Source: Coriobacteriia bacterium (lineage in GTDB: Bacteria; Actinomycetota; Coriobacteriia; Anaerosomatales; PHET01). Taken from it: a stretch of 64,000 nt of DNA. The notes beneath the pieces are model-generated. The model was given only the letters and a program-made list of their open reading frames with translations, did not search any database and was not told the DNA's origin. Position 1 is the first letter of the stretch. Each line of letters starts with the position of its first letter. The translations under genes and the position numbers were made by a program. This document shows, one piece after another, positions 1 to 15,331 of the stretch. Location of the stretch: contig DASRYH010000008.1 in NCBI GenBank assembly GCA_035687245.1, positions 180,138-244,137 on the forward strand, given 5' to 3'.

Positions 1-396
1 CTCAGGATGATCTGGAAGGACCAAACCTACGTGGCAGCCTCAATCGACCAAGATTATGGTGTCGGCGTCGAAATGGCCAAGGGCTATGACGCTGCGGCCG
101 ACCTTTCAGGCGGAGAGGATGTCTGCTTGGCCCTGTCCTTCAGCCAGGCGCTTGGCCGAGTATCTGACTTCGACGTGCCGCTGGTCTTTGATAGCCCCCT
201 AGTCAAGGTCGATGACGAGGTGAAGGTGCTCGTTGCGCAGACGATGCTCAAGAACCTGAACGGACGCCAGCTCATACTGCTTATGAAGCCGGACGAGTTT
301 GGTGCAGTTGAGAGCACTTTCGTCGAGAGCGGGGTCTCATCGGTGGTTCGAATTGAATTTGACGAAGCAGCCCAGTCGACCACGGTGGTGATCTAG
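1..396 (+). CDS. C-terminal fragment (5' end outside window) of an SMC/ABC-type ATPase resembling DndD-family proteins
   Basis: The frame is open to nt 1. The translation has an ABC-signature-like LSGGE, then about 25 aa later VPLVFDSPLVKVDD (hydrophobic-D Walker B/D-loop), then QLILLMKPDEF. Order and spacing match the LSxGE...PhhhDTPLGRLD...QhhhLSTDxE C-terminus I recall for DndD/SMC-like ATPases. The TAG stop (394-396) overlaps the GTG of the next ORF by 1 nt. Confidence 0.6.
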   Translation, partial: LRMIWKDQTYVAASIDQDYGVGVEMAKGYDAAADLSGGEDVCLALSFSQALGRVSDFDVPLVFDSPLVKVDDEVKVLVAQTMLKNLNGRQLILLMKPDEFGAVESTFVESGVSSVVRIEFDEAAQSTTVVI

Positions 397-818
397 TGGC
401 TCAGAGAGACCGTGTATACATCGACGGCGAACGCCGCGGTGAATTTGAGACCCTTGCGCGCCGAATGGGCGGCGTGGACAACAAGGACGCATTTCTCTTT
501 GCTATGTCATATGGTTTCGCTCACGGTATGCGCAAGCCGTTCAGGGATCGGTACGGCTTCGTGCTGTCTAAGTACTTCAACGAGGAAGACCACTGCCTAA
601 TGGCAGCGGTGGCGATGGCAGGGCGAGATGAGATTAGCGAGGACTTCTCGATGGATGAGGCATACGGCATCGCGGAGGAGTACGCCCGCGGTGGCATCGG
701 GCTACTGAGAGAGCAACTCGCTGACGGCGTTGAGTTCCGTGAGAACTTGTCAATCGAGGTTCTTCAGACAGCCGCAGGGCTAGCGATAAGTGAACGAAGC
801 GGGGATGCAACAGAGTGA
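396..818 (+). CDS. Small (140 aa) hypothetical protein, possibly DndE-like DNA-binding protein
   Basis: GTG start overlaps the upstream stop (TAGTG) and its stop overlaps the next start (GTGA at 815-818). It sits directly after the DndD-like ATPase, as dndE follows dndD. The segment GGVDNKDAFLFAMSYGFAHG ... YFNEEDHCLMAAVAMAG loosely parallels my recollection of DndE (GITPNVLCRFALMYSLEEG ... EFNAYTLTGEY..LL.ALV). The assignment comes from memory only and is weak. Confidence 0.45.
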   Translation: MAQRDRVYIDGERRGEFETLARRMGGVDNKDAFLFAMSYGFAHGMRKPFRDRYGFVLSKYFNEEDHCLMAAVAMAGRDEISEDFSMDEAYGIAEEYARGGIGLLREQLADGVEFRENLSIEVLQTAAGLAISERSGDATE

Positions 819-2047
819 GCAAGATCCTGCTGGTTCAACCCAGATTCCCGCTGCCCGCCAAGAGCCTGAACCACAAGGACTACTTGCCGATCGGGCTTCT
901 GAAGCTCTCGACCTGGCACAAGGAGCAGGGTGACGAAGTTCAGGCCGACTTCGGTGTGTATCGCATTCGCGAGGACTGGGTACCAGACACTATTTACGTC
1001 ACGTCCCTGTTCACCTACTGGGCAAATGCTGTTCGTGAGGCTGTACGCTTCTATCGGGATGCGTATGGCAGTGGCGCGGAGATTGTCGTCGGAGGCATAT
1101 ATGCCTCCCTTGAACCGGTGCACTGCAAGCAGCACACCGGATGCGACCGCGTCCATGAGGGTGTCCACGTGCAGGCGGAAGCGTTGTCACACACTCTGGC
1201 ACCCGACTACGGCCTACTGGAGCCAGAGCCGGAGTTCCAAATTGTCCATGCCTCGAGGGGCTGCATCCGCAAATGCACGTTCTGTGGAACTCATAGAATC
1301 GAGGAGGAGTTTCTGCCAAAGGCCTCCATCATGAGTGAGTTGAAGAAGAACCACTTGGTCTTCTACGACAACAACCTTCTGGCCAATCCCTACATCGGGG
1401 ACATCTTTGAGGAAATCGCGTCAACAAGAATGCATGGCCGTGTCATCACTTGTGAGAGCCAGAGCGGGATAGATGGGCGAATACTCCGAAAGGAACCGCA
1501 TCTCGCCGCTGCGATGAAGCGAGCTAGATTCAAGAATGTCCGCATCGCATGGGACGCGGGATTGGGTGAGCGGGGACGGGTTGCAGAGCAGCTTCAGATC
1601 CTCGAAGATGCGGGATTCTCCCGCAAGGAGATCCAGGTCTTCATGATCTACAACCATGACCTCGATCCCGAGGTGATGGTGGAGAAGGCGCAGCAGTGCT
1701 TCGATTGGGGCGTGCAAGTCTCAGATTGTCGCTACCGCCCGCTCGATGCCTTCAGTGACGGTTATCGGCCAATGAAGAAGTCGCAGGATCGTGGTGAGTA
1801 TCACATCCACCCGAACTGGTCTGACGCAGACGTAAGAGCTTTTCGTCGCCTCGTTCGCGAAAACAACATCTGCATTCGCTACGGCATTCCGAAAGACAGA
1901 TACGATCAGCGGCTTGAGGGCTTCTCAAGGCATGCTCGGGTTGAGATCGCTGAGATGCTTGGAATTGACGGACGCCTCAAGCACTCAGACTCGGAGCTCG
2001 CTCGAATCAATGAGGAATGGCTCAAGTCGCGCGAGGTGCATGGGTGA
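815..2047 (+). CDS. B12-binding-domain-type (class B-like) radical SAM protein
   Basis: The N-terminus (KILLVQPRFP...DYLPIGLLKLSTWHKEQGDEV...PDTIYVTS...IVVGGIYASLEP) has the pattern of the B12-binding-like Rossmann domain of class B radical SAM enzymes. It is followed by HASRGCIRKCTFCG, a CxxxCxxC 4Fe-4S/SAM motif. Both junctions are GTGA 4-nt overlaps. Confidence 0.8.
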   Translation: MSKILLVQPRFPLPAKSLNHKDYLPIGLLKLSTWHKEQGDEVQADFGVYRIREDWVPDTIYVTSLFTYWANAVREAVRFYRDAYGSGAEIVVGGIYASLEPVHCKQHTGCDRVHEGVHVQAEALSHTLAPDYGLLEPEPEFQIVHASRGCIRKCTFCGTHRIEEEFLPKASIMSELKKNHLVFYDNNLLANPYIGDIFEEIASTRMHGRVITCESQSGIDGRILRKEPHLAAAMKRARFKNVRIAWDAGLGERGRVAEQLQILEDAGFSRKEIQVFMIYNHDLDPEVMVEKAQQCFDWGVQVSDCRYRPLDAFSDGYRPMKKSQDRGEYHIHPNWSDADVRAFRRLVRENNICIRYGIPKDRYDQRLEGFSRHARVEIAEMLGIDGRLKHSDSELARINEEWLKSREVHG

Positions 2048-4491
2048 GCGTCTTTGACGATCCGTCTGACTGGGGCGTGGGACCCACGGGACTCTTCGGA
2101 CGAGTAGTTCGGTATCCGAGAAGGGGACAGGCTCTCGTGCCTGTCGCTCTTCAAAGGGATCTGGACTTGGCCTTGCCATCGGGCTACAGACGCATTGGAT
2201 TCCGCCGCTATTCAGACCTGAACGAGAAGGTGTGGCATGCCTTCACCGAGCACGAATGCCTTTGCCTCGCAGACAAGGCATCCGCGGAATTGAGGAGTAT
2301 TCCTCCCGAGCGTCTGTCCATCGGACCGCGCAAACTCGGGGAATTGTACGGGAGTGAGTCTCCAGCCAATCCCATCGTACTGGGCGCGCGCTCCTGGAAT
2401 CGATTTAGGCTCGGAAGAATCACGACCTGGAGTCAGATGGCTGAGATGACACCGAGTGATCTGCTCTCGATTCGCAGCTTTGGGACTAAGGCGCTGCTTG
2501 ATGTTCTGGTCGCCACGGAGTCCGCCTTCTGGAGTCAGCCTCAAGCCCCTGAGCCGAGCATCAGCCGGATTGTCACGACTCCTTGGAGACGAAGTCCGAG
2601 CCGCTTTCCGAGGCCGACACACAGCCTGGTGCCTCGTGTACTTGCGCCGCTACTTCAGTGCGCCATGCCGTCAGGACTTCAGCGCTCTGGGTTCTCGAAC
2701 TTCGGGGACTTGGATGACCGCGTATGGTCTGTCTACCAGCCGATAGAGATCGTGCGGCTGACGGATCTCGCCGCCAGTGCAGTACAGGGCGTGCGTACAT
2801 CGCTTCCACCCAAACTAGGCCTCGCGCAGCTCCAGGACCTTTTTGCGCTGGAGGGTGGCCAAGTTGACTTGACTGTCAGAACAAGGAATTGCCTTGGGCG
2901 AGCAGGCCTCAACACTTGGGAGAGACTCGGCGCAGCAACCATTAGTGAGATCCTGTCTATTGGCGGTTTTGGCGCTCTGAGCTTCATGGACCTGCTGACC
3001 TCGATTGAGTCCATCTCACGCCTGAATCCTCTCGAGGATTCCATCTACTCTCGCAGACGAGTTCTAGAGCCGCTTGATCTGGGTTCTCGTCCGTTGGACG
3101 TGGCTCTTCGAGAAGTACTCTGTCAGGCGGCCAAGAACGAACGCGCAAGCGAGATGATGCTATTGCGCCACGGCTGGGGTGGAACGGCACCGCTGACACT
3201 CGAGGAAACCGCACGCCGGTTCGGCGTCACTCGCGAGCGCATTCGACAGATTTGCAAGAAGGTAGAGTCTCGGATCTTGGAGGCGGGTGTAGCGGGGACC
3301 GCACTCACCGATGCGCTGGCTGTAGCTGGATCCAGCATCCCGATGGACAAGGCGCTGCTGGAGAGGACCTTGCTTACGCAGGGGCTTGTTCAAGACGCCT
3401 TCTCAGTGGAGTCACTGCTCGATGCGGCGCGGTTCTTCGGCGCAGAAGCCAGCTTCCGTATACGGGGTGACCAGGTCGTCTCGCTGGATAGTGTGACTGA
3501 CGAGGATGATATCGGCGACGCGATTCACTCGCTGATGTCACGCTGTTCAATTCGTGCGTACGCCGACCTAGTTTGCGCCGCTGGCGCTGAAGAGTCCCAT
3601 GATGACGATCTGCGCCATGCCATTGATGAGGACCCGGAACTCCTATGGCTTGATGATGAGAGAAGCTGGGTCGGGATGCCGTCCTTAGTGGCCACCAAGG
3701 ATCGAGTTGGCAACCGACTGAGGAAAGCCCTGGCTATGGCTGACACCGCACTCTCAATAGAGTCGATGGTCGATGCTGTAGGTAGAGACAGGCGAGGCGT
3801 CGAGGTTCCAAGCTCAGTGATGCAGGTGTATGCGACGAACAGCCCGTGGCTGCAGCAGGATGGGGCTCGTTTCGCTGCGGCCCCACCACTTAGGGGCGAG
3901 GAAGTTCTTCAGGGCGCGGAGCTTCAACTGGTCCGGGCGCTTAGGGATGAAGGCGGCATTGCACACCTCCACGATCTATGGTCCGTCGCCTATCGGCTGG
4001 GAGTGGGGAAGGTGAACTTCCACCGCTTGCTCGCCGAGTCTCCATGCGTAGTCAAACACGGGCCTTGTGTGTACGGGCTCAGGGGTGCGGACGTTTCGGC
4101 AAACGAAGTGTACGAGCGCGTACGTGAGGTCGAGAAGCATCGAGCGGTTCGTCTTGGAGGCAGTGGCCCGGTCACCTGGGTACTGTGGCGTCTCGCGGCC
4201 AGCGGCATCCGTATGGGGCGATGTAGTCTCCGGCAAGTGCCCTCAGGGCTAGTCGAGGGCACATATGACGTTCGGGTCGACGAGTCCGGGCCAAGCTTTC
4301 CGGTGAGAGTCGAAGACAACATAGTCTGCGGCGCCCTTGGAAGTCTCCTTAGAGTCATAGAGGCGTCTTCTGGCCGCCTGCTGCTACTTGTACTTGATGG
4401 CGCATCAATGTCCGGGACAGGAATGCTGGTCGGCGATCAATGGTCAATTGCCGACGATGACGAGATCGATGAGTTGGTCGGAACCCTCTGA
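2044..4491 (+). CDS. Large multidomain protein: two RNA polymerase alpha-CTD-like (HhH) modules + sigma-70 region 4.2-like HTH + unassigned C-terminal half
   Basis: The start could be ATG 2017 (31-nt overlap) or GTG 2044 (GTGA overlap with the radical SAM stop). I prefer 2044 because every other junction in this operon is an overlap of this kind. [49 protein letters not shown] aligns residue for residue with E. coli alpha-CTD [48 protein letters not shown]. A weaker copy is [72 protein letters not shown] matches sigma-70 region 4.2 ([27 protein letters not shown]). Confidence 0.7.
   Translation: [815 protein letters not shown]
2131..3012 (+). repeat. Intragenic tandem duplication of a module of about 130 aa (about 2131-2523 and 2623-3012)
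   Basis: [38 protein letters not shown] and [38 protein letters not shown] share 16 of 38 identical positions in my hand alignment. Each copy ends in an alpha-CTD-like HhH motif. Confidence 0.6.
3193..3279 (+). other. Sigma-70 region 4.2-like helix-turn-helix segment inside the large protein
   Basis: It translates as [38 protein letters not shown] is the hallmark core of sigma-70 region 4.2. Confidence 0.7.
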
Positions 4492-4845
4492 GTTTCGCGC
4501 GTTCTGATTGTCACTCGTACACCAGACGACCCAGAAGTGCATCAGACCACCCGGTCCCCCGGCGAGTCCTCCTGTCGGACGTCCACTAGCTTGACGCATC
4601 GCGGTGTAGTCGCCACGACCGTGGTCTGCCGATGTAATAGTGATTTGTGAGCTAGTGAGCGAGCGAGATTCTCACCGCCGCTAGTCGTGGGATGGCGACA
4701 GGGTTGATCGAGGGAACTTTGTGAGCTGCGAATTCTCATTCATTTCGGCTCCTGCACTACCCCCTCTTGGCCCGCGCCGGGGGTCTGTTGTGCTTGCCTG
4801 TTCTCGTTGCTAGGCAGAATGCTGACCGGTGGCGTTGCCGTGGAA

Positions 4846-5244
4846 TCAGCCGATTCCCAATTCCTTCAGAACCAAGGCGACTGCGTCCACCGTGGCTGGC
4901 TGGCCGAAGTGATACTTGCGATGACAACTTGCACACAGCGAGATGCACACGCTCGCGTCGATATCAGTGCGTGATTGTCGCTCCCATTTTGAGTAGACGT
5001 GGTGATTGTCCAACGCGCCCTGGTAGTCCTCGCCGCAGACAACGCACGGTCTTCGTTTGCGGGGACGCCTCTGTGGGTTGGCCGCAGGCAGAGGAGCGGG
5101 CCGCCCGGTGCGACCTATTGCCAACCGCGGCTGTCGGACAGAACCACCCCGTATCTCCGCGATCCACTCACCATAGTGTGACGAGAGCCACTCACTTGGT
5201 GGGGTCCACTCGGGTTCGTGCTCTGTCACGCGAGGTCCCCTCAC
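4846..5244 (-). CDS. HNH endonuclease family protein
   Basis: CVVCGE...DNHHV...LCASCHRKYH forms a Cys-pair / His-Asn-His type HNH motif in a basic 132-aa protein. It is on the opposite strand to the surrounding island genes. Confidence 0.65.
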   Translation of the reverse strand: MRGPRVTEHEPEWTPPSEWLSSHYGEWIAEIRGGSVRQPRLAIGRTGRPAPLPAANPQRRPRKRRPCVVCGEDYQGALDNHHVYSKWERQSRTDIDASVCISLCASCHRKYHFGQPATVDAVALVLKELGIG

Positions 5245-5905
5245 GAACGAGCCGGACCTTCGCCAGTTCGCGCAGGACCGACGTACTAAGGTGGTCAGTC
5301 CTTGTGACGATTCTTACCACAGACCGTGCGAACGGGACAGGATGGCATCCCTTGGGTGATTCATCACCGGGTCAGCGCTCGCCGTGGCTGACCCCCGCTT
5401 CTCCTGAGAAGAGGTAGCGATATGCCACTGATCACAGACCGTGGCCATGCTCCGGCGAAAAGGGTAGTGATGTGTGGCACCAGCCGTCGGCTCCACAGAA
5501 GGTATGAAGAATAGGCCTTAGTTCGTCAGGATGCCCCCATACTCAAGTCAGGCGGGGATGGATGGGCATTCTCGGGGGTCCACAGGCACTACATGAGGCC
5601 AATCTGGACCAATAGGCCCCTAGTTTGTTCAAGAGGGCCCACACTGATCGAAGACAAGACCACCAGGCAGAGAGGGGACCGATCCGAGGTAGCGACATTT
5701 CAGGGCGCGCCTACAGCAGGGGCGAACGCACCGACCGAGCACTGCTAACACTCTGAGCCTCTTCGGCTCACAACTCACGTACCCGCATAGATGAACCGGC
5801 CATTGCTGTCTTTGGCTTGTTCGGTCACGTCCAGAAGGCCCCTGATGCCCCCAAACAAGCACTTCGTGTTCGTGACTGCGGAAATCGATTCTGAAAACCC
5901 TTTGA

Positions 5906-6331
5906 TTGGTTAGGAGACCAATGCAGCTGATCTTCGACGACCTGGGCTACAAGCTCGTTCCCTACGCTTCTGGCCTTTGCTACGAAATCTGGCGATATCT
6001 GCCCGAGCGCATCGCCAAGCGGGGTCGGACGTCCGGCAAGGTGGCGCCCGCGGGATGGAAGTCGATCGACTGTTATCCCGTAGATCCCCATGCAGGGGCG
6101 CTGAAGGTTTACAGCCTTTGCGTCAATGCCGACCCCTCAGTTCATCAGCATTGGGAGAGCGCGGTTAAGCGCATGGAGGAGATTCGCGACTCCATCCTCC
6201 GTGCCACATGGCGTGAGGTGGGAGACGATGCACCGCCACGCTCGCTCTGTAACTGCGGCAATCAGTGCGCGTGTCGTAGCACCGCCACCAACCCCCCGGT
6301 AGGGGGGTGTGTCTCGGAGCGGGACTCCTAA
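5906..6331 (+). CDS. Hypothetical island protein (Cys-rich C-terminus CNCGNQCAC)
   Basis: The ORF is followed by a good hairpin terminator at 6378-6397. I recognise no motif. The start may be ATG 5921. Confidence 0.35.
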   Translation: MVRRPMQLIFDDLGYKLVPYASGLCYEIWRYLPERIAKRGRTSGKVAPAGWKSIDCYPVDPHAGALKVYSLCVNADPSVHQHWESAVKRMEEIRDSILRATWREVGDDAPPRSLCNCGNQCACRSTATNPPVGGCVSERDS

Positions 6332-6377
6332 CCCGCTTCCGTGTGCCGATCACATCATCGTTCTGACTCACCGAAGC

Positions 6378-6397
6378 GAAGGGCCACGAGGCCCTTC
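6378..6397 (+). terminator. Hairpin terminator after the hypothetical island gene
   Basis: GAAGGGCC-ACGA-GGCCCTTC is a perfect 8-bp stem with a 4-nt loop, followed by TTCATTT. Confidence 0.55.
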
Positions 6398-6461
6398 TTC
6401 ATTTGGGGGCTGGTGGTTCATTGGCGGGCCGCCAGCCCCATCCAAAGCTGAAAGGATATTG

Positions 6462-6659
6462 ATGAACCTCGATAACGCGGAAGAAGTCCTGACGATCAGC
6501 GAGGTGGCGAAGCTCCTCCGTATTGGACGCAACACGGCATATCGCATGGCGAAGCGGAAGACGATCCCGACCCTCAGTCTTGGCCGCCGCCTGGTAGTGC
6601 CGAAGCGAGCACTTCTCATCATGCTCTCTGATGGCTGTTCGTTCGTCGGAGTGCAGTAG
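6462..6659 (+). CDS. Excisionase/MerR-like helix-turn-helix DNA-binding protein (Xis-like)
   Basis: ATG 6462 is preceded by AAAGGA. The 65-aa product contains LTISEVAKLLRIGRNTAYRMAKRKTIPTLSLGRRLVVPK, typical of the excisionase-family HTH_17 pattern. Its stop is immediately followed by the ATG of the next gene (TAG-ATG at 6657-6662). Confidence 0.7.
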   Translation: MNLDNAEEVLTISEVAKLLRIGRNTAYRMAKRKTIPTLSLGRRLVVPKRALLIMLSDGCSFVGVQ

Positions 6660-7649
6660 ATGGCGGGCCTCGGAATCATCTCTTTGGAGGACGTTGCCAC
6701 TACGGAGATGGAGTGGCTTTGGCCGGGATGGATTCCGAAAGGAGCACTGACGTTCCTGGTGGGGGATCCAGGAGTAGGGAAGTCCAGTCTCTCTTGGGAC
6801 CTGGCCGCCCGACTTAGTACCGGGGACGATCTTCCGGATGGCGGCGAGGGTAGGTCGGGCAGGGCACTGATCATCTCTGGTGAGGATGGGCTTTCTGACT
6901 GGATTCGCCCCCAGCTCATCGCGTACGGAGCGCGAATCGACAACATCTCGGCGATGAACATGCGATCCCAGGAGCGGGGACTCAGGCTCGACACCGATTG
7001 CGAGGAGCTGGAGCGACTCGTGGACAAGAAGAACATCGAGCTCGTCATCATTGATCCGCTTGACGCGTTCCTGGGCCGCAGCAATCCGAACAGTGGTGCG
7101 GACATCAGGGCCATCACCAATGGTCTGGCAGGACTTGCGCAGAGGACGGGAGCGGCTGTTCTTGTCCTGCATCACTTCAACAAGAAGGAGAAGGCGGCCG
7201 CCGGCCACCGCGTCTCGGGTTCGATCGACTTGGTGGGGGCGGCTCGCTCGGTGCTCTACCTCGTCGTGCATCGGCGCAAGAACACGCATCGCATCTTGTA
7301 CCGGCAGAAGGGGAACTGCGGCCGGGCCCCACAGCCCATGCTGCTCGGACTTGGTAAGGGCGAGCGCTTGGAGTGGAGTCAGACGCCCGACGACTTCGAC
7401 TTGGATACGTACGCGACGGGTCGCAGGAGCGCCGCGGTAGCTGAGGCAGTGCGCTTTCTCAAGACGATCATGGACGAACACAACGGATGTGTTGAATCGT
7501 CTGTGGTGCTCAGGGAGGCTGCAGCCGCAGGGATTTCCCGGCACGCCCTCGAGAGGGCAAAGGACGAACTCTGTGTGTCTTCGAGGAAGAGTAAGAGCAA
7601 GTTCAAGGGTGGCTGGGCGTACTGCTACGAGGAGGACGAGGAGTCCTAG
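6660..7649 (+). CDS. RecA-like AAA ATPase of mobile elements (AAA_25 / RepA-like)
   Basis: It has Walker A GDPGVGKSS and Walker B LVIIDPLDAFLG, and the N-terminus EWLWPGWIPKGALTFLVG is typical of the phage/ICE AAA_25 family. It lies between the Xis-like gene and the integrase. Confidence 0.7.
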   Translation: MAGLGIISLEDVATTEMEWLWPGWIPKGALTFLVGDPGVGKSSLSWDLAARLSTGDDLPDGGEGRSGRALIISGEDGLSDWIRPQLIAYGARIDNISAMNMRSQERGLRLDTDCEELERLVDKKNIELVIIDPLDAFLGRSNPNSGADIRAITNGLAGLAQRTGAAVLVLHHFNKKEKAAAGHRVSGSIDLVGAARSVLYLVVHRRKNTHRILYRQKGNCGRAPQPMLLGLGKGERLEWSQTPDDFDLDTYATGRRSAAVAEAVRFLKTIMDEHNGCVESSVVLREAAAAGISRHALERAKDELCVSSRKSKSKFKGGWAYCYEEDEES

Positions 7650-7664
7650 GGAGGAATAGCTCAT

Positions 7665-7700
7665 CATCTTCGTCTTCTTCCTGCCAAGAGGATGAAGATG
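7665..7700 (+). terminator. Imperfect long hairpin after the ATPase gene
   Basis: CATCTTCGTCTTCTT...AAGAGGATGAAGATG pairs about 15 bp including G-U pairs, followed by TTGCTCTATT. Confidence 0.35.
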
Positions 7701-7827
7701 TTGCTCTATTCGCGTCTGGTGCACTGTCATCGTCGGATTCAAGTGATAACTTCGAGGGGCTGGGATTCCCACTGGGATCTCGGCCCCTTTCCCGTCTGGA
7801 CGACGTGAACTGAAAGGGAAATGCACC

Positions 7828-8967
7828 TTGGAAATGGAAAAGACATCGAGCGGAAGGTACAAGGTCCGCATCTGGGACAAGCATCTCTGCAAGAAGGTCT
7901 ACGTAGGGACCTATCCCACGAAGACCGCCGCCAGGACGGCAGGGACGCAAGCTGAGCTTCGATTGCTCACTTTCGGTCACCTGCCCGAGCACAAGGACAT
8001 CACGCTGGTCGCTCTGTGCGATCGCTACATCGAGATGAACCCTCAGCTCCGCACAAGCACGATCGACTGGTATGCGAATGCGCTCAAGAAGGCACGCGCC
8101 TTCTTTGGCGATGAGGCCAGTGTCAGACGTATGTCCAAGGAAGACATGCAGTCCTACGTTTCGAGCCTCATTTCTCAGAAGAAGGCATCGAAGACGGTCG
8201 TGGGCTACCTCAAGGCACTCGGGGCGGTGTTCGAGCAGGCGGTTGAGTGGGGCTATCGCGAGAGCAATCCCTGCCGCAAGCTCCGCAATCTACCGGAGAA
8301 CCGGCGAGCAGATGACGCAATCCGCGTACTGAGCACCACGGAGCACGCACGATTGGCGGATTCGGCCCCGGGTCACTACAGGACGATGGTATCGGTGTGG
8401 CCTTTCATCGGACTTCGCCGCTCAGAGATGCAGGGCCTGCGGTGGGAAGACGTCGACTTGGTTGGTGGCCGGCTGCACGTAAGGCACCAGCTCCGTGAGG
8501 ACGGAAGCCTCGATCCTAACCTCAAAACGCGTAAGTCCCGGCGAACGATCGTGATGCCGCAAAACGTAGTGAACGAGCTTCGCAAGTGGCGCTTGGAGAG
8601 CAAGCCCAACCTGCTCGACCTCGTCTTCCCAACGCAGCAGGGTCTGCCGCAAACCTCTAAGCCGAACTTCTACAGTTGGTGGAACAAGGCGTGTGCAAAG
8701 GCAGGCCTCGCCGGCTGCAATCCCCACGACATGCGGCACACTTTCGCCACGTGGTCTTTGGCGGCAGGGGAGAACCCCAAACGGGTCGCCGACGAGATGG
8801 GGCACGAGAAGACGTCGATGATGCTCGACACGTATCTTCACCTGCTCGTTGACGACAATGTAGGGGGTACAAAGCGGCTCGAGGAATGGTACTATTCTCA
8901 GGCTGCTACGAGCGGGATGGATGCAAGTACCGCCCCTATACCGCCCCTGAAGGCCTCAAACGCCTGA
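7828..8967 (+). CDS. Tyrosine recombinase / phage-type integrase
   Basis: The N-terminal SAM-like core-binding region is followed by the catalytic domain: GLRRSE (Arg I), HDMRHTFATWSL (His-x-x-Arg) and GHEKTSMMLDTYLHL (His ... catalytic Tyr). The start is TTG 7828 or ATG 7834. The gene ends 47 nt before tRNA-Pro. Confidence 0.85.
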   Translation: MEMEKTSSGRYKVRIWDKHLCKKVYVGTYPTKTAARTAGTQAELRLLTFGHLPEHKDITLVALCDRYIEMNPQLRTSTIDWYANALKKARAFFGDEASVRRMSKEDMQSYVSSLISQKKASKTVVGYLKALGAVFEQAVEWGYRESNPCRKLRNLPENRRADDAIRVLSTTEHARLADSAPGHYRTMVSVWPFIGLRRSEMQGLRWEDVDLVGGRLHVRHQLREDGSLDPNLKTRKSRRTIVMPQNVVNELRKWRLESKPNLLDLVFPTQQGLPQTSKPNFYSWWNKACAKAGLAGCNPHDMRHTFATWSLAAGENPKRVADEMGHEKTSMMLDTYLHLLVDDNVGGTKRLEEWYYSQAATSGMDASTAPIPPLKASNA

Positions 8968-8984
8968 TCGGGGAGGATCGGGGA
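8966..8984 (+). repeat. Tandem direct 9-mer GATCGGGGA x2 (10-bp period) between integrase stop and tRNA
   Basis: GATCGGGGA at 8966-8974 and again at 8976-8984, read directly from the sequence. Confidence 0.5.
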
Positions 8985-9013
8985 AGTGAGTTTCCGCAGG
9001 TAGAAGCATATAT

Positions 9014-9090
<77 letters not shown>

Positions 9091-9098
9091 GCACTCTT

Positions 9099-9122
9099 CG
9101 AGGCACCCTCCGGGGTGCCTCG
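9099..9122 (+). terminator. Hairpin terminator after tRNA-Pro
   Basis: CGAGGCACCC-TCCG-GGGTGCCTCG is a perfect 10-bp stem, followed by TTTCGTCT. Confidence 0.55.
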
Positions 9123-9334
9123 TTTCGTCTATCTGCACAAGCGTGCTCGACAGTTCAAGAGCCGTTTCAAAGGCTTCGGCCGCCTTCTTGGAGACAAACG
9201 AAGACCCCGCGAGGCGGTGATTCCTCCGGGGCCGTGATCAGCGCCTTGCGATGGGCGACTGACTTGCATAGGGTATCACGCCCGAATCGGCAGAGAGGCC
9301 CCAGTGAATTCGGCCGCGCAGGGAAAAGGCCTGA

Positions 9335-10198
9335 CTACGCCGCCGGTGCATCGCCCATCTCGTCTTCCATCATCGACAGGAGCTTCAGCCCGTCACGGTA
9401 GGTGCCTTCGAGGAAGAGGGCCTCATCGTGCAGCCCAGAGCGCCGCATCTCCGTCTCGAATGTGAGGAACTTGTCGTAGGGGGACGCGGCCACCGTTCGG
9501 ACTAGCTCAGCCCAGTCGACCGTCCCGGAGAATACGGGTTTGTGCTGGTCGGCGGTTCCGTCGTTGTCGTGCAGGTGAAGTGAGATGAGGCGCTCCTTCA
9601 CGGAATCAAGGTGCCGGAGCCCCATCCCTCCTATGTTTCCGTGGCCCGTGTCGTAGCAGAGGCCCAAGAAGGTCGACTCGTACTCCGAAAACAGCTCGCG
9701 AATCCCGATGAACTTGTCGTTTGCCCGATTCTCCACCGCGATCTTGACGGACCTTGCGGTGCAGTACTCCTCAAGCTCGTCCAGCGATTTCCTGAGCTGA
9801 CTCCACGCATCGCGGTTGGCGGAGTTCGCGGGGGGTGTATGAACCACAATCACCGAACCACCCAGAACGGTGCACATGTCGACGCGGTTCTTGATGATCT
9901 CGACACCAGCTAGCCGCTGGTACTCGACGATTGAGTACCAGTTCTTCTCAGCGCCTGCGGGAGCGTGGATGTCGTAGAGCGAAAGCGCCAAGCGGTTCAG
10001 GAGTTGCTCGATGTGCCTGATCTCCGGCGCGGTGTAGACAAAGTCGTGCCTCCAGTGGTGGATCCACTGGATGTGCCGGAAGCCCGCCTCCGCGATCCGT
10101 GTCAGGGCGGGTTCGGCATTGCCGGTGTCGCCGGCATAGTCCGTTGCCATTGCGAGTTCCATGTCGTGAGGCCTCCCGGCTTTGTTGGAGTTGAACAT
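9335..10198 (-). CDS. Sugar phosphate isomerase/epimerase (xylose isomerase-like TIM barrel)
   Basis: The length and pattern fit AP_endonuc_2/TIM-barrel proteins: AGFRHIQW...IHAP...VVHTPP...IAVENR...GLCYDTGH...LHLHDN. The start may be the downstream MELAMATDY. Confidence 0.65.
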   Translation of the reverse strand: MFNSNKAGRPHDMELAMATDYAGDTGNAEPALTRIAEAGFRHIQWIHHWRHDFVYTAPEIRHIEQLLNRLALSLYDIHAPAGAEKNWYSIVEYQRLAGVEIIKNRVDMCTVLGGSVIVVHTPPANSANRDAWSQLRKSLDELEEYCTARSVKIAVENRANDKFIGIRELFSEYESTFLGLCYDTGHGNIGGMGLRHLDSVKERLISLHLHDNDGTADQHKPVFSGTVDWAELVRTVAASPYDKFLTFETEMRRSGLHDEALFLEGTYRDGLKLLSMMEDEMGDAPAA

Positions 10199-10277
10199 AC
10201 TCCGAATACGCGCCCAATGCGGCGCGAGGCTCGACGCCTTCGGTCAATGGGACGTTTGGTGAGCGTTACAGACGTGG

Positions 10278-11270
10278 ATGGCAGACCGGTGGTGCCTACT
10301 CGGCGTCGCCACCGCTGCCGCGTGGGTTGAGCGACCACCCGCTGCGTTCGACCCGGTCAGTCTGGTGGGAGATACTGGGGAGACTAGTGTCGCCAGCGAA
10401 GGGGCAATCACGGTGGCTGAAGAGAATATAGCGATACTCGTGGATTCGGGCTGCGACGTACCCCAGGAATACCGGGACAGGTACCACATCTACGTCGCCC
10501 CGCTCACGATCGTCTACAAGGAGGGCGAGTATCGGGACGGAATCGACATCGCTCCCGATACGGTCTACGAACGCTTCAAGGATGAGGTTCCGTCGACTTC
10601 ATTGCCGAGTCCTGCGACGGTCGCGGAGCTCTTTCGGCAGATCAAGGCCGATGGCTACGAGAAGGTCATCGTGATCGCGATTTCCAGCGGCTTGAGCGGG
10701 ACCTTCAACATGCTGATGACATTCGGGCCGGAGCCGGAGGGGCTCGAGGCGCGCTACATCGATACCAGGAACATCGGGATCGGGAGCGGCTTTTCGGCGA
10801 TTCGCGCTGGCGAACTGATCGAGAAGGGGCTGTCGTTTTCCGAGGTGTGCAGCCAAGTTGAGATCGCGGCGAACAACACGAAGCTGTTCTTCTGTGTCGC
10901 GTCCCTCGAGTACCTGATGAAAGGCGGTCGAATCGGACTTGTCTCGGGAGTGATGGGAATGCTCCTGGATGTGAAGCCGGTCATCGCCTGCAACGAGGAC
11001 GGCATCTACTACACGGTTGCGAAGGCCCGCGGGCGCGAGAAGTCGCTGAGGGTTGCGCTTCAGAAGGCCGTCGAGTTCGCCGAAGGGGCCAAGGAGTACA
11101 ACATCGCGGTGGTTCAAGGCGCTGCAGCCGCCGAAGGTGCCGCGCTGATGGCCACAATGAAGGAGCAGCTGCCGGACTTCGGGTACGCGATCGAAGAAGT
11201 GCTCACGCCCGCGCTCGTCGTCCACACCGGACCAGGGCTGATCGGCATAGGCGTACAGCGGTTGGCCTAG
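10278..11270 (+). CDS. DegV family fatty-acid-binding protein
   Basis: IAILVDSGCDVPQEY...TSLPSPATVAELF...VIVIAISSGLSGTFN is the DegV signature. The true start is probably an internal GTG near VAEENIAIL. Confidence 0.85.
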   Translation: MADRWCLLGVATAAAWVERPPAAFDPVSLVGDTGETSVASEGAITVAEENIAILVDSGCDVPQEYRDRYHIYVAPLTIVYKEGEYRDGIDIAPDTVYERFKDEVPSTSLPSPATVAELFRQIKADGYEKVIVIAISSGLSGTFNMLMTFGPEPEGLEARYIDTRNIGIGSGFSAIRAGELIEKGLSFSEVCSQVEIAANNTKLFFCVASLEYLMKGGRIGLVSGVMGMLLDVKPVIACNEDGIYYTVAKARGREKSLRVALQKAVEFAEGAKEYNIAVVQGAAAAEGAALMATMKEQLPDFGYAIEEVLTPALVVHTGPGLIGIGVQRLA

Positions 11271-11376
11271 CGCTTGCCGAAGGTAGTGAGACGCAACGGC
11301 GTCGACGTGGTACGGATGTCGGCGTCGTCGTTCGACTAGGTAGGGGACAAGCTGCGCGCGCAAAGGTGAACGAGGC

Positions 11377-13569
11377 ATGATGACTGATTCTGCAGGCACC
11401 AGCAACGAGGCAACCGAAGTCTTGGCGGCCGCCATCGCGCAGGAGCTGCACGCGCTGGACGAGTGGCAGGCGAAGCGGTTGCTTGCTAGTTACGGCATTT
11501 CGGTGCCTGAAGGCGGGCTCGCGCGCGATGCGGACGAGGCCGCGGCGATCGCGCGGCGGCTCGGGGGTCCCGTGGCCGTCAAGGCGATCGGGACGAGCAT
11601 CAATCACAAGACCGAGCGCGGGCTCGTCGCGCTCAATCTGAGTGACGAGTCGGCCGTACGCGACTCCGCTAGCTCACTTCTCGTGGCCGCCGAAGATCCG
11701 AGCGCATCGCTTCTCGTGGAGCGCATGGTCAAGGGCTCTCGGGAGTTCATGATCGGCATGAAGCGTGACCCCTCCTACGGCCCTGTCGTTGTCTTTGGCA
11801 TCGGCGGAGTCTTAGCCGAGGCGCACAGGGACATCTCGCTCGGCGTGACACCATTGGACGACGGGGATATTGAGCGCATGCTCTCCGGGATTCGGGCGAG
11901 TGCGCTGCTTGATGCGTTTCGGGGCATGCCACCGGTGGATCGCGTGGCGCTTGTGGCGGCCATTCGTGCGCTCGCGCAGATTGCCGAGGACCATCCCGCT
12001 ATCACTGAGATCGACGTGAACCCTCTCATCATCGACGGCACGAGGCCGGTTGCCGCCGATGCGCTCGTGATCCTCGATCCCGGAGCGGCTACGCGTGCAT
12101 CGGGCGCCACTCGAGCAGCGCCTGCATCGCCGAATCTGTCGCCGATGTTCGCGCCGCGGGCCGTGGCTGTCGTTGGCGCTTCGAACGACCCCCTTAAGTG
12201 GGGCGGTTCTCTCATGCGCAACATCATCAACGGGGGTTTCGCTGGCCCCATCTACCCCGTCAACGGGCGCGGCGGCTCCGTGTGTGGCCTGGAGGCCTTC
12301 GCCAGCATCTCGGATCTGCCCGAGGCGCCTGATCTTGCGTTGGTTGCAGTAGGAGCTGCCTACGTGGATGGCGTAATCGAGCAGTGCGGAGAGCGCGGCA
12401 TTCCTGTCGCGCTGGTGGTCGCTGCAGGCTTCTCTGAAGCAGGCGAGGAGGGGATTGCCGCAGAGGCGGCGCTCGTCAAGACCGCCGAGGACGCAGGCGT
12501 CACGCTCGTCGGTCCCAACTGCATGGGACTGCTGTCAACGCATAGCCATCTGCATGCCGTCGGCTTCTTGGAGCTCCGGCCCGAAGCCGGCGGCCTGAGC
12601 ATCATCTCCCAGTCCGGCAACATCGGCGTCCAGCTTGTGACCAGGGCGGAGCGGCGCCACGTCGGCATCGACAAGTACGTGACGGTCGGCAACCAGGCCA
12701 CTACCACCGCGCTCGATGTGCTCGAAGCGCTGGCAGACGACCCCAAGACAGCTGCTGTGCTCGTCTATCTCGAGGAGATCGGCGACGGCCGCCGCTTCAT
12801 CGACGTCTTGCGCCGCACCACGACCCAGAAGCCGGTGGTCGTACTGCCCGGCGGCATGACCGACTACGGCCGCCGCGCTGCTGCTTCGCACACCGGGGCC
12901 ATGGCCGGTTCAACGGATGTCTTCCTGGCAGCGACCCGGCAGACAGGCACCCTCGTCCGTACGGGTCCAGACGAGAGCCTGGACCTTGCGCTGTGCCTCT
13001 CGGCTCTTCCACTGCCGAAAGGCCGCAGAGTAGCAGTGATGACACTCGGCGGCGGATGGGGAGTGCTTGCCGCCGACGAACTGGCTCGCAACGACCTGGA
13101 GCTGGCGACGCTCGAGCCGGAGGTGCTTGCCGCACTGGATGAGCTTCTGCCCGGCTACTGGTGTCGCAGCAACCCTGTCGACCTCGTCGCGACAGTTGGC
13201 CCAGACCTCGCGGCGAGCACTCTGACCAAACTCGCGCAGAGCGATGATGTCGACGCCGTCGTGGTCCTCGGTATTCTGCGCAGCCCGTCGACGGGCTGGA
13301 CATCGGATGACCCGGCAGCGGCAGGCGTACCGGGCGGTCCCGGCCGCGGCAACTTCAACGCGGCCGAGGTCGCATTCCTCGAGCGCGTCACCGAGCTCAT
13401 GGAGAGCACCGGCAAGCCGATCATCAACGCCCCGCTCCGCCCGCTCGATGCCGCGACTTTCCCCGGTGGAAGGCGATATGACCCTGTCATCCTCTACTCT
13501 CCGGTCGCCGCAGTCCGGGCCCTTGCCGCGATGGCGTGGTATCGCGAGTACGTCGACGGGGCCTCGTGA
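11377..13569 (+). CDS. ADP-forming acyl-CoA synthetase (acetate-CoA ligase family), fused beta-alpha subunits
   Basis: An N-terminal ATP-grasp domain (EWQAKRLLASYGISVPEG...VAVKA) is followed by CoA-binding and ligase-CoA domains (PRAVAVVGASNDPLKWGG...GPNCMGL...SQSGN...AASHTGAMAG). Confidence 0.8.
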   Translation: MMTDSAGTSNEATEVLAAAIAQELHALDEWQAKRLLASYGISVPEGGLARDADEAAAIARRLGGPVAVKAIGTSINHKTERGLVALNLSDESAVRDSASSLLVAAEDPSASLLVERMVKGSREFMIGMKRDPSYGPVVVFGIGGVLAEAHRDISLGVTPLDDGDIERMLSGIRASALLDAFRGMPPVDRVALVAAIRALAQIAEDHPAITEIDVNPLIIDGTRPVAADALVILDPGAATRASGATRAAPASPNLSPMFAPRAVAVVGASNDPLKWGGSLMRNIINGGFAGPIYPVNGRGGSVCGLEAFASISDLPEAPDLALVAVGAAYVDGVIEQCGERGIPVALVVAAGFSEAGEEGIAAEAALVKTAEDAGVTLVGPNCMGLLSTHSHLHAVGFLELRPEAGGLSIISQSGNIGVQLVTRAERRHVGIDKYVTVGNQATTTALDVLEALADDPKTAAVLVYLEEIGDGRRFIDVLRRTTTQKPVVVLPGGMTDYGRRAAASHTGAMAGSTDVFLAATRQTGTLVRTGPDESLDLALCLSALPLPKGRRVAVMTLGGGWGVLAADELARNDLELATLEPEVLAALDELLPGYWCRSNPVDLVATVGPDLAASTLTKLAQSDDVDAVVVLGILRSPSTGWTSDDPAAAGVPGGPGRGNFNAAEVAFLERVTELMESTGKPIINAPLRPLDAATFPGGRRYDPVILYSPVAAVRALAAMAWYREYVDGAS

Positions 13570-13662
13570 CACCGCACGCGAGCACATGCTCAGGTCGGTC
13601 CGAAGCGCGTCGGGTGCCCGTTAGCGGGTAAGTACTCAGCTACGGACTATCGATGAGGGGAC

Positions 13663-14163: not shown

Positions 14164-14191
14164 GGCGCACCCACAGGAGGAGGGGCCGGAC

Positions 14192-15082: not shown

Positions 15083-15331
15083 CGCGCGGTTCGCGTCGAG
15101 TGCGTCAACGGCGTATAATCAAGCTCCAACTGCGTCGCTATTGGACGCTCTCGCGACGACACCGGCGGCCCTCTCAATGGCGCACCGCATCGTCCTTCGG
15201 TGTCTTTGATAGCTCCCTGGTATGCCCACCGGGCACAGCGCGACAGGGGGGAGTAAGGCGTTACGGCTGTCGGGTTTGAGACCTCGGCGTCGGTTCGACC
15301 GCACCGTCACTGGACGGAAGCGGCAACCACG

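Follow-up and report, generated by a model that had tools for sequence, protein, structure and literature searches.

Positions 1-4491 of the window, a 64,000-nucleotide stretch of a Coriobacteriia genome, hold the final four genes of a six-gene operon on an integrative element. The core of this operon is a PbeABCD-type anti-phage system (a CxC ABC-ATPase/DndE-cognate system), and it is accompanied by two translationally coupled accessory genes. The PbeABCD core is known; what is new is the presence of a B12-type radical SAM enzyme (ORF3) and a large protein built of DNA-binding modules (ORF4) as coupled add-ons to it, an arrangement not found in the profile libraries or literature searched. 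If our reading of ORF3 is correct, the operon may represent a new kind of DNA self-marking.

Results

Operon structure and the Pbe core

Four same-strand ORFs (ORF1-ORF4, Table 1) are joined by overlapping junctions, at exactly the coordinates given in an earlier note on this DNA. G396 is common to the stop of ORF1 and the start of ORF2 (TAG/GTG), and GTGA overlaps connect ORF2 to ORF3 (815-818) and ORF3 to ORF4 (2044-2047). An independent gene caller picked the same starts on L001, a public contig of identical sequence (offset +275), preferring GTG 2044 over ATG 2017. Tight junctions between PbeD and the radical SAM gene are seen in sister loci as well (in L002 and L004, the stop and start share one base), indicating conserved coupling rather than a product of chance. 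A scan of the + strand over 1-4491 detected no promoter-like or terminator-like site inside the operon.

ORF1 retains the LSGGE signature of ABC ATPases and a Walker B motif of DndD type, LVFDSPLVKVDD. It matched PADLOC PbeC at 3.1e-19 (with 40 PbeC/DndD models matched) and TIGR03185 DndD at 3.7e-9, and full-length PbeC proteins in 22 loci have C-termini homologous to it. ORF2 matched TIGR04062 dnd_assoc_4 at 4.6e-6, which is under the curated cut-off; the identical protein in L001 carries a precomputed PF27807 (DNA_S_mod_dnd_assoc_4) assignment, and ORF2 clusters with a 130-160 aa gene 3' of PbeC in 21 loci. Sister loci L002, L004, L005, and L007 share the gene order PbeA, a 61-70 aa ORF, PbeC, PbeD, radical SAM, ORF4 family. 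Since PbeA (a nuclease-helicase) and the small PbeB lie upstream in 4/4 untruncated sister loci, the window contains the 3' portion of such a PbeABCD system. The L002 proteins matched PADLOC PbeA at 8.9e-209 and PbeC at 9e-89, and PbeC of both L002 and L004 has a single CxC in the middle of the protein, consistent with the published definition (PMC10853773). From the sister loci, we infer that the source genome encodes PbeA (a fusion of HKD nuclease and SF2 helicase) and PbeB beyond the left edge, together with the bulk of PbeC, including its CxC hook.

These results bear out the earlier descriptions of ORF1 as a DndD-type ATPase C-terminus and ORF2 as DndE-like, the absence of DndA and DndC, and the suggestion that further upstream genes belong to the operon. 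The claim that no named system fits has to be divided. It fails for ORF1 and ORF2, which are PbeC and PbeD (Pbe had wrongly been listed as non-fitting): with PbeA and PbeC directly upstream in sister loci, the core belongs to an already described system. For the ORF3 and ORF4 add-ons it holds within the profile libraries and papers searched, none of which contained them.

Table 1. Features of the operon and its surroundings (window coordinates).
Feature	Position	Strand	Basis or remark
ORF1, PbeC C-terminal 131 aa, DndD-like CxC-type ABC ATPase, cut by window edge	1(7)..396	+	PADLOC, TIGR03185
ORF2, PbeD, DndE cognate of the CxC ATPase, 140 aa	396..818	+	TIGR04062, PF27807
ORF3, B12-binding-type (class-B-like) radical SAM enzyme, 410 aa	815..2047	+	Pfam (weak), AF2 model, fold match to MgmA
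ORF3 T63-S64-L65...G93-G94, N-terminal Rossmann domain	1001..1096	+	Matches SxL...GG of cobalamin-binding motif
ORF3 CxxxCxxC radical SAM cluster motif (C150, C154, C157)	1262..1285	+	Read from sequence; invariant in 82/82 members
ORF4, nucleic-acid-binding modules, 815 aa	2044..4491	+	Pfam, AF2/Foldseek; alternative ATG 2017 gives 824 aa
ORF4 first alpha-CTD-like helix-hairpin-helix module	2383..2517	+	Pfam RNA_pol_A_CTD, 2 stretches; BLAST internal repeat
ORF4 second alpha-CTD-like module	2860..2991	+	PF03118 3.7e-11, best stretch 282-325
ORF4 sigma-70 region 4 helix-turn-helix, recognition helix TRERIRQI	3136..3261	+	PF04545 3.2e-7
ORF4 four tandem winged-helix units	3283..4080	+	AF2 pLDDT 76; Foldseek best SelB WH2-WH4, 3.5e-4
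ORF4 C-terminal beta domain, B3/DNA-binding pseudobarrel-like	4168..4434	+	Foldseek AtVAL1, FUS3 B3
Terminator-like hairpin, first downstream of operon	4764..4783	+	Consensus match only
HNH-like ORF	4846..5244	-	
Integration module of carrying element (HTH_17, AAA_25, integrase, tRNA-Pro(GGG))	6462..9090	+	
HTH_17 Xis-like gene	6462..6659	+	Precomputed Pfam on identical contig L001
AAA_25 ATPase	6660..7649	+	Precomputed Pfam on identical contig L001
Tyrosine integrase	7834..8967	+	Precomputed Pfam on identical contig L001
tRNA-Pro(GGG)	9014..9090	+	ARAGORN

All components of the island context noted earlier (HNH, Xis-like HTH, ATPase, integrase, and tRNA) were located (Table 1), and HTH_17 and integrase genes are also found at the end of sister loci L004 and L005. 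The lower-GC block is likewise present, with a difference of about 4-6 points (56-61% at 1-11 kb vs 61-67% elsewhere), so the contrast stands and the figures originally attached to it (50-53% vs 60-68%) do not.

ORF3 is a B12-type radical SAM enzyme

The cluster motif, Pfam, and the fold match agree with the earlier reading of ORF3 as a radical SAM enzyme bearing CxxxCxxC and a B12-type N-domain. Its Pfam matches to Radical_SAM and B12-binding are weak (B12-binding, 18 bits, under cut-off). Like the cluster cysteines, TS[LIV] and GG in the N-terminal domain are invariant in 82/82 family members; going by the canonical B12-binding motif, we take T63-S64-L65...G93-G94 to be the SxL...GG part of a cobalamin motif. 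The AF2 model of ORF3 (pLDDT 87.8) is best matched among solved structures by the B12-dependent methylase MgmA (9ccb, E 6e-8, identity 13%), with a TM of 0.52 that represents a match at fold level only. MgmA was the sole PDB match with E < 1e-3, and sequence comparison with PDB chains gave none. No curated family for ORF3 was found in Pfam, NCBIfam, or PADLOC, and no target-recognition domain is obvious in the protein. ORF3 shares ~50% identity with relatives across Bacteria and Archaea. Overall, the family comprises highly conserved, uncurated cobalamin-domain radical SAM enzymes that move among DNA-tracking defence modules.

ORF4 is a modular nucleic-acid-binding protein

The two alpha-CTD modules and the sigma region 4 previously read from ORF4 were recovered by profile searches (Table 1), and structural comparison added winged helices and a beta domain. 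The beta domain matched the B3 domains of AtVAL1 and FUS3 with a Foldseek probability of 0.99 and a target TM of about 0.5. In the second alpha-CTD module, TVRTRNCL corresponds to TVRSANCL of E. coli alpha, Arg265 position included, and alignment A2 shows R279 and L284 to be invariant. The sigma region 4 shares 43-53% identity with the same region of primary sigma factors. In RNA polymerase, alpha-CTD and sigma region 4 are the two modules that contact promoters. ORF4 as a true sigma-70 factor was ruled out because sigma regions 2 and 3 are missing. Within the parts of ORF4 examined, no catalytic domain was detected. Pbe/DndD-like operons and GHKL triads repeatedly end with an ORF4 relative, and one relative is a fusion with a UvrD helicase; relatives also occur in loci that lack Pbe. 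Members are only 22-28% identical to each other, indicating a fast-evolving family.

Genomic neighbourhoods of the ORF3 family

Across 86 surveyed loci, ORF3 relatives follow ParB/GHKL proteins in 43, lie 3' of or abut Pbe genes in 24 (in both Bacteria and Archaea), follow DISARM DrmA-B-C-E in 4, and occur with DndB/DpdB-like proteins in 3 and with SNF2 modules in 3. The PbeD-radical SAM order is kept in Pbe-type loci of Actinomycetota, Chloroflexota, Planctomycetota, Methanobacteriota, Bathyarchaeia, and others. Partners include ParB_N proteins, DGQHR DndB/DpdB-like proteins (which match DpdB at 1e-23), and GHKL ATPases, all of them helpers of known DNA-modification machines. In the DISARM loci, ORF3 relatives end DrmA-DrmB-DrmC-DrmE operons at the position of the class 2 methylase (the DrmMII C5 methylase).

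The distribution of methylases points the same way. The L058 island, bounded by housekeeping genes, contains no methylase, and none of the best 25 Pfam families among 106 proteins flanking 17 Pbe-radical SAM loci was a DNA methylase or PAPS-reductase family present in at least 2 loci, a survey in which methylases of single loci could escape notice. Pbe-like operons that have an ORF4-type protein and lack the radical SAM gene do contain an N6_N4 methylase. We conclude that ORF3 occupies the modification-enzyme (methylase) slot of its system. Pbe systems without any linked modification gene exist (PMC10853773), however, and an empty methylase slot alone is therefore no proof that ORF3 fills it.

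Phages carry copies of the ORF3 family without any restriction partner. Phage contig L097 has an ORF3-family gene adjoining the large terminase subunit (phrog_38, 1.7e-93), L096 has only PbeD and the radical SAM gene, and the copy in Marinitoga camini virus 1 is solitary.

Discussion

Gene-neighbourhood evidence favours the first proposal of the earlier note, radical-SAM modification of nucleic acid guided by the ATPase. Under this reading, ORF3 would be to PbeC-PbeD what DndC is to DndD-DndE: PbeC and PbeD would scan and present DNA, ORF3 would mark host DNA covalently (in the simplest case with a C-methyl group added by class-B chemistry), and PbeA would restrict DNA without the mark. ORF4 would be a DNA-targeting or regulatory subunit, possibly steering the complex to promoter-like DNA or serving as a sensor. 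We lean modestly toward this scheme as a whole. Several points count against it. The nearest solved structure, MgmA, has a protein rather than DNA as its substrate, and conservation of ORF3 at ~50% identity whatever its partner, with no obvious target-recognition domain, is as compatible with a small-molecule or generic substrate as with DNA. To our knowledge, CPR bacteria and DPANN archaea, which account for many ORF3-family host lineages, are not expected to make cobalamin.

ORF3 might instead be an effector, causing radical damage to or blocking invader DNA recognised by PbeC-PbeD, ParB, or DISARM, or making a modified nucleotide that poisons replication in a viperin-like manner. We consider this rather unlikely. 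High conservation regardless of partner without a target-recognition domain would suit an effector, radical SAM effectors such as Ophion are known in defence, and PbeABCD is reported to have halted a virus without detectable DNA degradation and with PbeA only partly required (PMC6459918). However, the partner systems already have nucleases (the PbeA HKD and DrmC PLD domains), operons of otherwise similar make-up have either an ORF3-family gene or a methylase, and PADLOC gave ORF3 0 families. Solitary phage copies, one of them beside a terminase gene, are also hard to square with a host-protective toxin. The same copies have no partner to modify, which weighs against post-translational modification of a system protein, for example methylation of PbeD or PbeC. 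MgmA, which C-methylates a glutamine of methyl-coenzyme M reductase, favours such a role, but the neighbours of the ORF3 family are unrelated (PbeD, ParB, GHKL, DrmE, DGQHR) and hhalign found no domain common to PbeD and the ParB/GHKL partners, making this quite improbable.

The alternative raised in the earlier note is an abortive-infection device, in which ORF4 would mimic parts of RNA polymerase as a decoy, sense phage attack on the polymerase, and then trigger the system. The alpha-CTD and sigma region 4 are phage targets (T4 Alt/ModA, T4 AsiA), the recognition helix of primary sigma factors (TRERIRQI) and an alpha-CTD motif with the Arg265 equivalent are retained in ORF4, and the ORF4 family evolves fast, as sensors often do. 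The conserved residues are also DNA contacts, though, so that plain DNA binding explains their conservation equally; the remainder of ORF4 consists of further nucleic-acid-binding folds (SelB-like winged helices, a B3-like barrel), and the radical SAM enzyme is left unexplained. We therefore regard a decoy as improbable. That ORF3 and ORF4 are unrelated cargo beside a Pbe operon is barely credible: unrelated systems are packed together in defence islands and ORF4 relatives are also found without Pbe, but the four-base start/stop overlaps, the lack of an internal promoter or terminator, and the PbeD-radical SAM order kept from Actinomycetota to Bathyarchaeia all argue against it.

Comparison with known systems

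ORF4 and MzaA both have a sigma region 4 helix-turn-helix, and the pairing of MzaA with MzaB has a counterpart in ORF4 relatives, whose partners are GHKL ATPases. The MzaA match, however, covers ~42 ORF4 residues at 39.7 bits against a cut-off of 800, and the alpha-CTD pair, winged helices, and B3-like barrel of ORF4 are not assignable to MzaA. Dpd (DpdA and DpdB) places a DGQHR/ParB-like ATPase beside a DNA-modifying enzyme, much as ORF3 relatives pair with DGQHR and ParB_N proteins; in contrast, the window copy is paired with PbeC-PbeD, and neither a TGT-like DpdA nor a preQ0 pathway is present. In class 2 DISARM (DrmE-DrmA-DrmB-DrmC-DrmMII), ORF3 relatives lie in the slot of the DrmMII C5 methylase, but the window has no Drm genes and the accessory enzyme is the only link. 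ORF3 resembles class B radical SAM methyltransferases in its N-terminal Rossmann B12-type domain followed by a CxxxCxxC radical SAM barrel. It differs from MgmA, to which it is 13% identical and whose substrate is a protein; a 2026 review of B12-dependent radical SAM enzymes names none acting on DNA (PMC12931638).

Like DndABCDE, the system combines a DndD-family ATPase, a small DndE-family protein, and an iron-sulfur enzyme proposed to act on DNA. It lacks the DndA cysteine desulfurase and the DndC PP-loop enzyme, and its iron-sulfur enzyme is a radical SAM TIM-barrel with a B12-type domain, unrelated to DndC, so the product is unlikely to be a phosphorothioate. PbeABCD was described by Xiong et al. 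2019 (PMC6459918) and reannotated by the Aravind group in 2024 (PMC10853773). ORF1 and ORF2 are its PbeC and PbeD, and sister loci carry the full order of PbeA, small protein, PbeC, and PbeD. Described versions have dndCDEA or C5/N4 cytosine methylases with MTaX1 as linked genes, or occur by themselves, whereas here a radical SAM enzyme and an alpha-CTD/sigma-4 protein, neither mentioned in the accessible Pbe literature, are coupled to pbeD in the same mobile and defence-island setting.

Operon layout and island setting

The earlier note had described four overlapping plus-strand ORFs at the left edge of the window, and this layout was confirmed. TAG and GTG share G396 between ORF1 and ORF2, and GTGA overlaps at 815-818 and 2044-2047 join the remaining pairs, as claimed. 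Independent gene calling of L001, an identical public Logan contig of 8.8 kb that begins farther downstream than the window start (window position = L001 position + 275), returned the same boundaries. In that call ORF4 starts at GTG 2044, not ATG 2017, and GAGGTG lies five bases ahead of this GTG. A scan of the plus strand over 1-4491 detected no promoter-like or terminator-like sites.

Features of the operon and the adjacent island, in window coordinates
Feature	Position	Strand	Remark
ORF1, PbeC C-terminus	1(7)-396	+	131 aa, cut by the window edge
ORF2, PbeD	396-818	+	
ORF3, predicted B12-type radical SAM enzyme	815-2047	+	
ORF4, alpha-CTD/sigma-4 protein	2044-4491	+	
Terminator-like hairpin, first after the operon	4764-4783	+	Consensus match only
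HNH-like small ORF (CxxC ... H ... CxxCH)	4846-5244	-	No Pfam match recorded in L001
ORF of 136-141 aa, no family match	5921-6331	+	No Pfam match recorded in L001
HTH_17 gene (Xis-like)	6462-6659		
AAA_25 ATPase	6660-7649		
Integrase	7834-8967		
tRNA-Pro(GGG)	9014-9090		

The island genes reported next to a tRNA gene (HNH-like, Xis-like, ATPase and integrase) were all located, with the HNH-like ORF and the 136-141 aa ORF lying between the operon and the integration module. The lower-GC block was also found, but the figures first quoted for it were not reproduced: the first 11 kb has 56-61% GC versus 61-67% elsewhere, a dip that is modest but real. Since the integrase stops 47 bases before the tRNA-Pro 5' end, the element adjoins this gene on its 5' side and not on the usual 3' side. 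No second copy of the tRNA-Pro 3' end was found across the window, and the island's left end is outside it. Elsewhere, the most extreme AT skew of the window (-0.24 to -0.26 over ~2 kb, 43000-45000) is a negative stretch overlapping back-to-back plus-strand ORFs at 42936-43808 and 43808-44779.

ORF1 and ORF2 form the distal part of a Pbe core

The proposal that the operon fits no named system, Pbe included, fails for its core, which is a known system: ORF1-ORF2 are PbeC-PbeD. The DndD-like reading of ORF1 was upheld by matches to PADLOC PbeC (3.1e-19) and to TIGR03185 DndD (3.7e-9). Forty PADLOC models match this edge-cut sequence, all those listed being PbeC or DndD, and the ABC signature LSGGE and a Walker B motif are readable. 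ORF2 likewise proved DndE-like, matching TIGR04062, "DNA phosphorothioation-associated protein 4", at 4.6e-6, under the curated cut-off. Its identical counterpart in L001 carries a precomputed PF27807 match, and neighbour clustering groups ORF2 with the gene following PbeC from 21 loci.

Under the Pbe nomenclature, PbeA combines an HKD nuclease and an SF2 helicase in one polypeptide, PbeB is small and disordered, and PbeC is the CxC ATPase, with PbeD as its DndE cognate (PMC6459918, PMC10853773). The nearest relatives of the window operon are the sister loci L002, L004/L005 and L007, whose radical SAM (rSAM) proteins are 54-57% identical to ORF3. These loci share the order PbeA (~710 aa), an ORF of 61-70 aa, PbeC (~660 aa), PbeD (138-148 aa), rSAM and ORF4 family, and L002 matches PADLOC PbeA at 8.9e-209 and PbeC at 9e-89. 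PbeA and the small ORF lie upstream in all four untruncated sister loci; in the window genome that region is off the window edge. Only one CxC occurs per PbeC, CVC at 342 in L002 and CIC at 344 in L004 of ~660 residues, where the coiled-coil apex hook should be; it was read from the sister loci, the corresponding part of the window genome's PbeC being beyond the edge. Together, the ORF1 and ORF2 matches, the sister-locus order and the single CxC indicate that the window contains the 3' portion of a Pbe system. A different arrangement occurs in a Methanobrevibacter MAG (L034, ~3900-17400), where two complete PbeA-PbeC-PbeD cassettes, both on the minus strand, surround a single plus-strand rSAM gene.

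ORF3 is a predicted cobalamin-type radical SAM enzyme

ORF3 had been read as a radical SAM enzyme with a B12-type N-terminal domain. Its CxxxCxxC cluster is present, but Pfam support for both domains is only sub-threshold (Radical_SAM, 20.7 bits; B12-binding, 18.3 bits; each under its cut-off). No NCBIfam family was found for ORF3, the best being a 19-bit match to TIGR04013, and a sequence comparison with PDB chains gave no match. No PADLOC model matched at E up to 0.1, those for prokaryotic viperins and other known radical SAM defence enzymes included; Ophion was rejected as the same system by its gene set (rSAM, PHP and PRTase). All 82 aligned family members share C150, C154 and C157, as well as T63-S64-[LIV]65 and G93-G94, without exception, and we take the TS[LIV]...GG spacing to fit the SxL...GG element of the canonical motif for cobalamin binding. 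The sole significant PDB fold match of the AlphaFold model (pLDDT 87.8) is MgmA (PDB 9ccb; E 6e-8, TM 0.52); the other radical SAM folds, MoaA, LIAS and NifB, match the barrel only. The CxxxCxxC motif and the partial TIM barrel of the model thus place ORF3, as predicted, in the radical SAM superfamily.

The ORF3 family is large and tight. A set of 5.8 billion proteins yielded 1929 matches, many ~50% identical, in Bacteria and Archaea alike, and among 1.84 billion cluster representatives the threshold of E ≤ 1e-30 was passed by 255 clusters and that of E ≤ 1e-10 by 1341. Members reside mostly in uncultured anaerobes, CPR bacteria and DPANN archaea, which would be why screens based on E. coli and Bacillus missed them.

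ORF3 relatives adjoin several kinds of partner

The neighbourhood scan, with one genome per species, covered 80 loci, almost all from MAGs; 86 loci were tallied and their neighbours clustered. Half of these (43/86) have ParB_N or GHKL (HATPase_c_3) proteins with a common C-terminal domain, often plus a protein of ~333 or 505 aa. Pbe genes adjoin the rSAM gene in 24/86, seven of which also have the ORF4 family. The remainder comprise DrmA-DrmB-DrmC-DrmE (4/86; DrmA 5e-103, DrmB 1.6e-20, DrmC 4.9e-13, DrmE_fam 3.8e-20), DGQHR DndB/DpdB-like proteins (3/86), ParB-like plus SNF2 arrays (3/86), and contig ends or other contexts (9/86). A DndE-like adaptor domain common to all partners was rejected, as hhalign of the PbeD family versus the ParB/GHKL C-terminal domain gave a probability below 1%. 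Clades of a neighbor-joining tree follow partner type only loosely, with several switches, and the enzyme behaves as an exchangeable module.

In the DISARM-like arrays, from archaeal and bacterial MAGs (L058:697-11284, L074, L083 and L070), DrmA-DrmB-DrmC-DrmE is followed by the rSAM gene with no methylase at the end; in L058 the block, free of any methylase, has housekeeping genes on both sides. Distant relatives of ORF3 (25-27% identity, ~540 aa) are found on plasmids of cultured alphaproteobacteria. Novosphingobium aromaticivorans pNL1 (L091, record 62242-66382) and Rhizobium sophoriradicis pCC511_1 (L090) carry an array of DGQHR, rSAM and 'ATP-binding protein' genes adjoined by PIN-like and ATPase genes, and L090 also has a ParB-like/SNF2 array. 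These two plasmid loci are a tractable model for the family.

ORF4 combines predicted nucleic-acid-binding modules

The two alpha-CTD repeats and sigma region 4 ascribed to ORF4 are both supported (Pfam RNA_pol_A_CTD in two stretches, 3.7e-11; Sigma70_r4, 3.2e-7). Region 4 shares 43-53% identity with that of primary sigma factors and retains the recognition helix TRERIRQI; the second alpha-CTD keeps TVRTRNCL, whose Arg is invariant across the ORF4 family. The C-terminal 406 residues, as modelled (pLDDT 76), contain four tandem winged helices, best matched by SelB WH2-WH4 (3.5e-4), and a terminal beta domain predicted to resemble plant B3 DNA-binding barrels (probability 0.99). No catalytic domain was found in the parts examined, and the ~100-residue module ahead of each alpha-CTD drew no assignment.

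Two named identities were rejected because region 4, a helix-turn-helix, alone aligns. The match to MzaA model NF041931 reached 39.7 bits, the cut-off being 800, and Mza genes are absent nearby; for a sigma-70 factor, only PF04545 region 4 is present, regions 2 and 3 not being found. The family is small and fast-evolving, with 9 matches at 22-28% identity. In the NCBI annotation of the identical genome, ORF4 has only 593 aa (P0121), starting ~220 codons downstream and losing the first alpha-CTD repeat, and sister-locus annotations disagree likewise (729 vs 820 aa; 508 vs 728 aa). These late starts indicate that public gene models of this family are often truncated.

The alpha-CTD and sigma-4 modules also end Pbe/DndD-like operons that lack the rSAM gene. 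In L087:2396-7514, L088:7323-12204 and L089:7694-12163, a ~195 aa protein and a ~550 aa GHKL (HATPase_c_3) ATPase are followed by a full-length ORF4-family protein of 720-955 aa. Pbe and rSAM genes are absent from this three-gene array, which has no PADLOC match to a named system and appears to be a distinct candidate defence module, so far undescribed, with the ORF4 component in common. In L095:1581-12365, a 1454 aa UvrD-type helicase is fused to alpha-CTD and sigma region 4 modules, immediately behind the gene for a 2138 aa DEAD/Helicase_C/MZB (DUF1998-type) protein. Given its domain content and its occurrence in other arrays, ORF4 is a separable, recurrent accessory built of nucleic-acid-binding modules.

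A putative role in marking self DNA

In class 2 DISARM, the DrmMII methylase stands at the operon end that the ORF3 relatives occupy in the DISARM-like arrays. Among the top-25 families from 106 flanking proteins of 17 non-redundant Pbe+rSAM loci, no DNA-methylase or PAPS-reductase/DndC family occurred in at least two loci. Where Pbe/DndD-like operons close with an ORF4-type gene but lack the rSAM gene, an N6_N4 methylase is present, within the operon in L094 and beside an MTaX1-HNH gene in L093. All recurrent partners of ORF3 relatives fall into classes that help DNA-modifying enzymes in known systems, as DndD/DndE do with DndC and DpdB does with DpdA. From this context, and by analogy, we infer, as the reading we favour, that ORF3 may be the modification module of its systems. 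PbeC-PbeD would load onto DNA and pass it to ORF3, by which host DNA would be marked; PbeA would attack unmarked DNA, and ORF4 would direct or gate the complex. The mark would probably be a C-methyl group, judging from the class-B fold of the model. Class B radical SAM methylases transfer methyl via methylcobalamin, giving 5'-deoxyadenosine and SAH.

The marking reading also draws on phages, which carry the enzyme without a restriction partner. Cultured temperate phage Marinitoga camini virus 1 has a solitary rSAM gene near its lysogeny module (L092:8001-9083, UF08_54), and an IMG/VR sequence (L097:3532-6687) has one immediately ahead of the gene for the large terminase subunit (phrog_38, 1.7e-93). 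A second IMG/VR sequence (L096:7583-9257) carries only the rSAM gene and a PbeD homologue 54% identical to bona fide PbeD; its proteins had no match in PHROGs, so its viral status comes from IMG/VR alone. Orphan phage methylases show this familiar pattern. ORF3 could instead be an effector that harms invader DNA or makes a toxic nucleotide, an explanation we consider unlikely. Modification of a partner protein is less probable still; it would parallel MgmA, a B12-dependent glutamine C-methylase of methyl-coenzyme M reductase whose fold the ORF3 model matches over its full length.

For ORF4, targeting of promoter-like DNA, regulation of the operon, or decoying of phage factors that attack RNA polymerase may all be considered. 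Its RNA polymerase-like modules would suit the last of these, but a device in which ORF4 acts as an RNA polymerase decoy for abortive infection seems to us improbable. Least credible is a coincidental adjacency of Pbe with ORF3 and ORF4, which is very hard to reconcile with the shared order of the sister loci.

Returning to the marking role, we give somewhat less than an even chance that the enzyme represents new DNA-modification chemistry. The broader proposal is equally tentative, namely that the ORF3 family is a new DNA-modifying class whose mark is the self label of several mutually unrelated machines of restriction-like type, that phages have captured this cobalamin-type enzyme, and that its chemistry is directed or read at promoter-like DNA by ORF4. 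If true, the mark would be previously unseen, for example a C-methyl on an unactivated carbon, and would serve as one self label for Pbe, DISARM, ParB/GHKL, DGQHR and SNF2 machines in anaerobic Bacteria and Archaea. This would explain self/non-self discrimination in Pbe and some DISARM-like systems without a methylase, and phage capture of the enzyme, alone or with PbeD, would be an anti-restriction device. To our knowledge, every understood restriction-type system marks self by SAM-dependent methyl transfer, phosphorothioation, deazaguanine insertion or similar polar chemistry; radical SAM self-marking would be a new chemical route to epigenetic marks. The idea is testable in culture, because distant relatives sit on cultured alphaproteobacterial plasmids such as pNL1. 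The ORF4-type protein is a second recurring accessory, seen with Pbe-like operons and GHKL triads and also as a UvrD helicase fusion.

Relation to known systems

CxC systems were reportedly first described by Krishnan et al. in 2020 (NAR 48:10045), a paper outside the coverage of our literature search. Within that coverage, we found no description of the ORF3 and ORF4 add-ons, which are also absent from the profile libraries (Pfam, NCBIfam, PADLOC), of the pairing of the ORF3 enzyme with DISARM, ParB/GHKL or DGQHR modules, or of an accessory combining alpha-CTD and sigma-4. A 2024 summary of CxC systems names only the HKD-SF2 helicase, the small protein, methylases and MTaX1 (PMC10853773).

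PbeABCD as first defined depends on phosphorothioation and is linked to dndCDEA, whereas the window operon has no adjacent dndC, dndD, dndE or dndA; CxC systems also exist without Dnd (PMC10853773). DndABCDE has the DndC PP-loop enzyme and the DndA desulfurase; as the earlier note had observed for the operon, both are lacking, and the sister loci lack them as well. The DISARM genes DrmA, DrmB and DrmC are absent from the window and occur only beside ORF3 relatives in L058, L070, L074 and L083.
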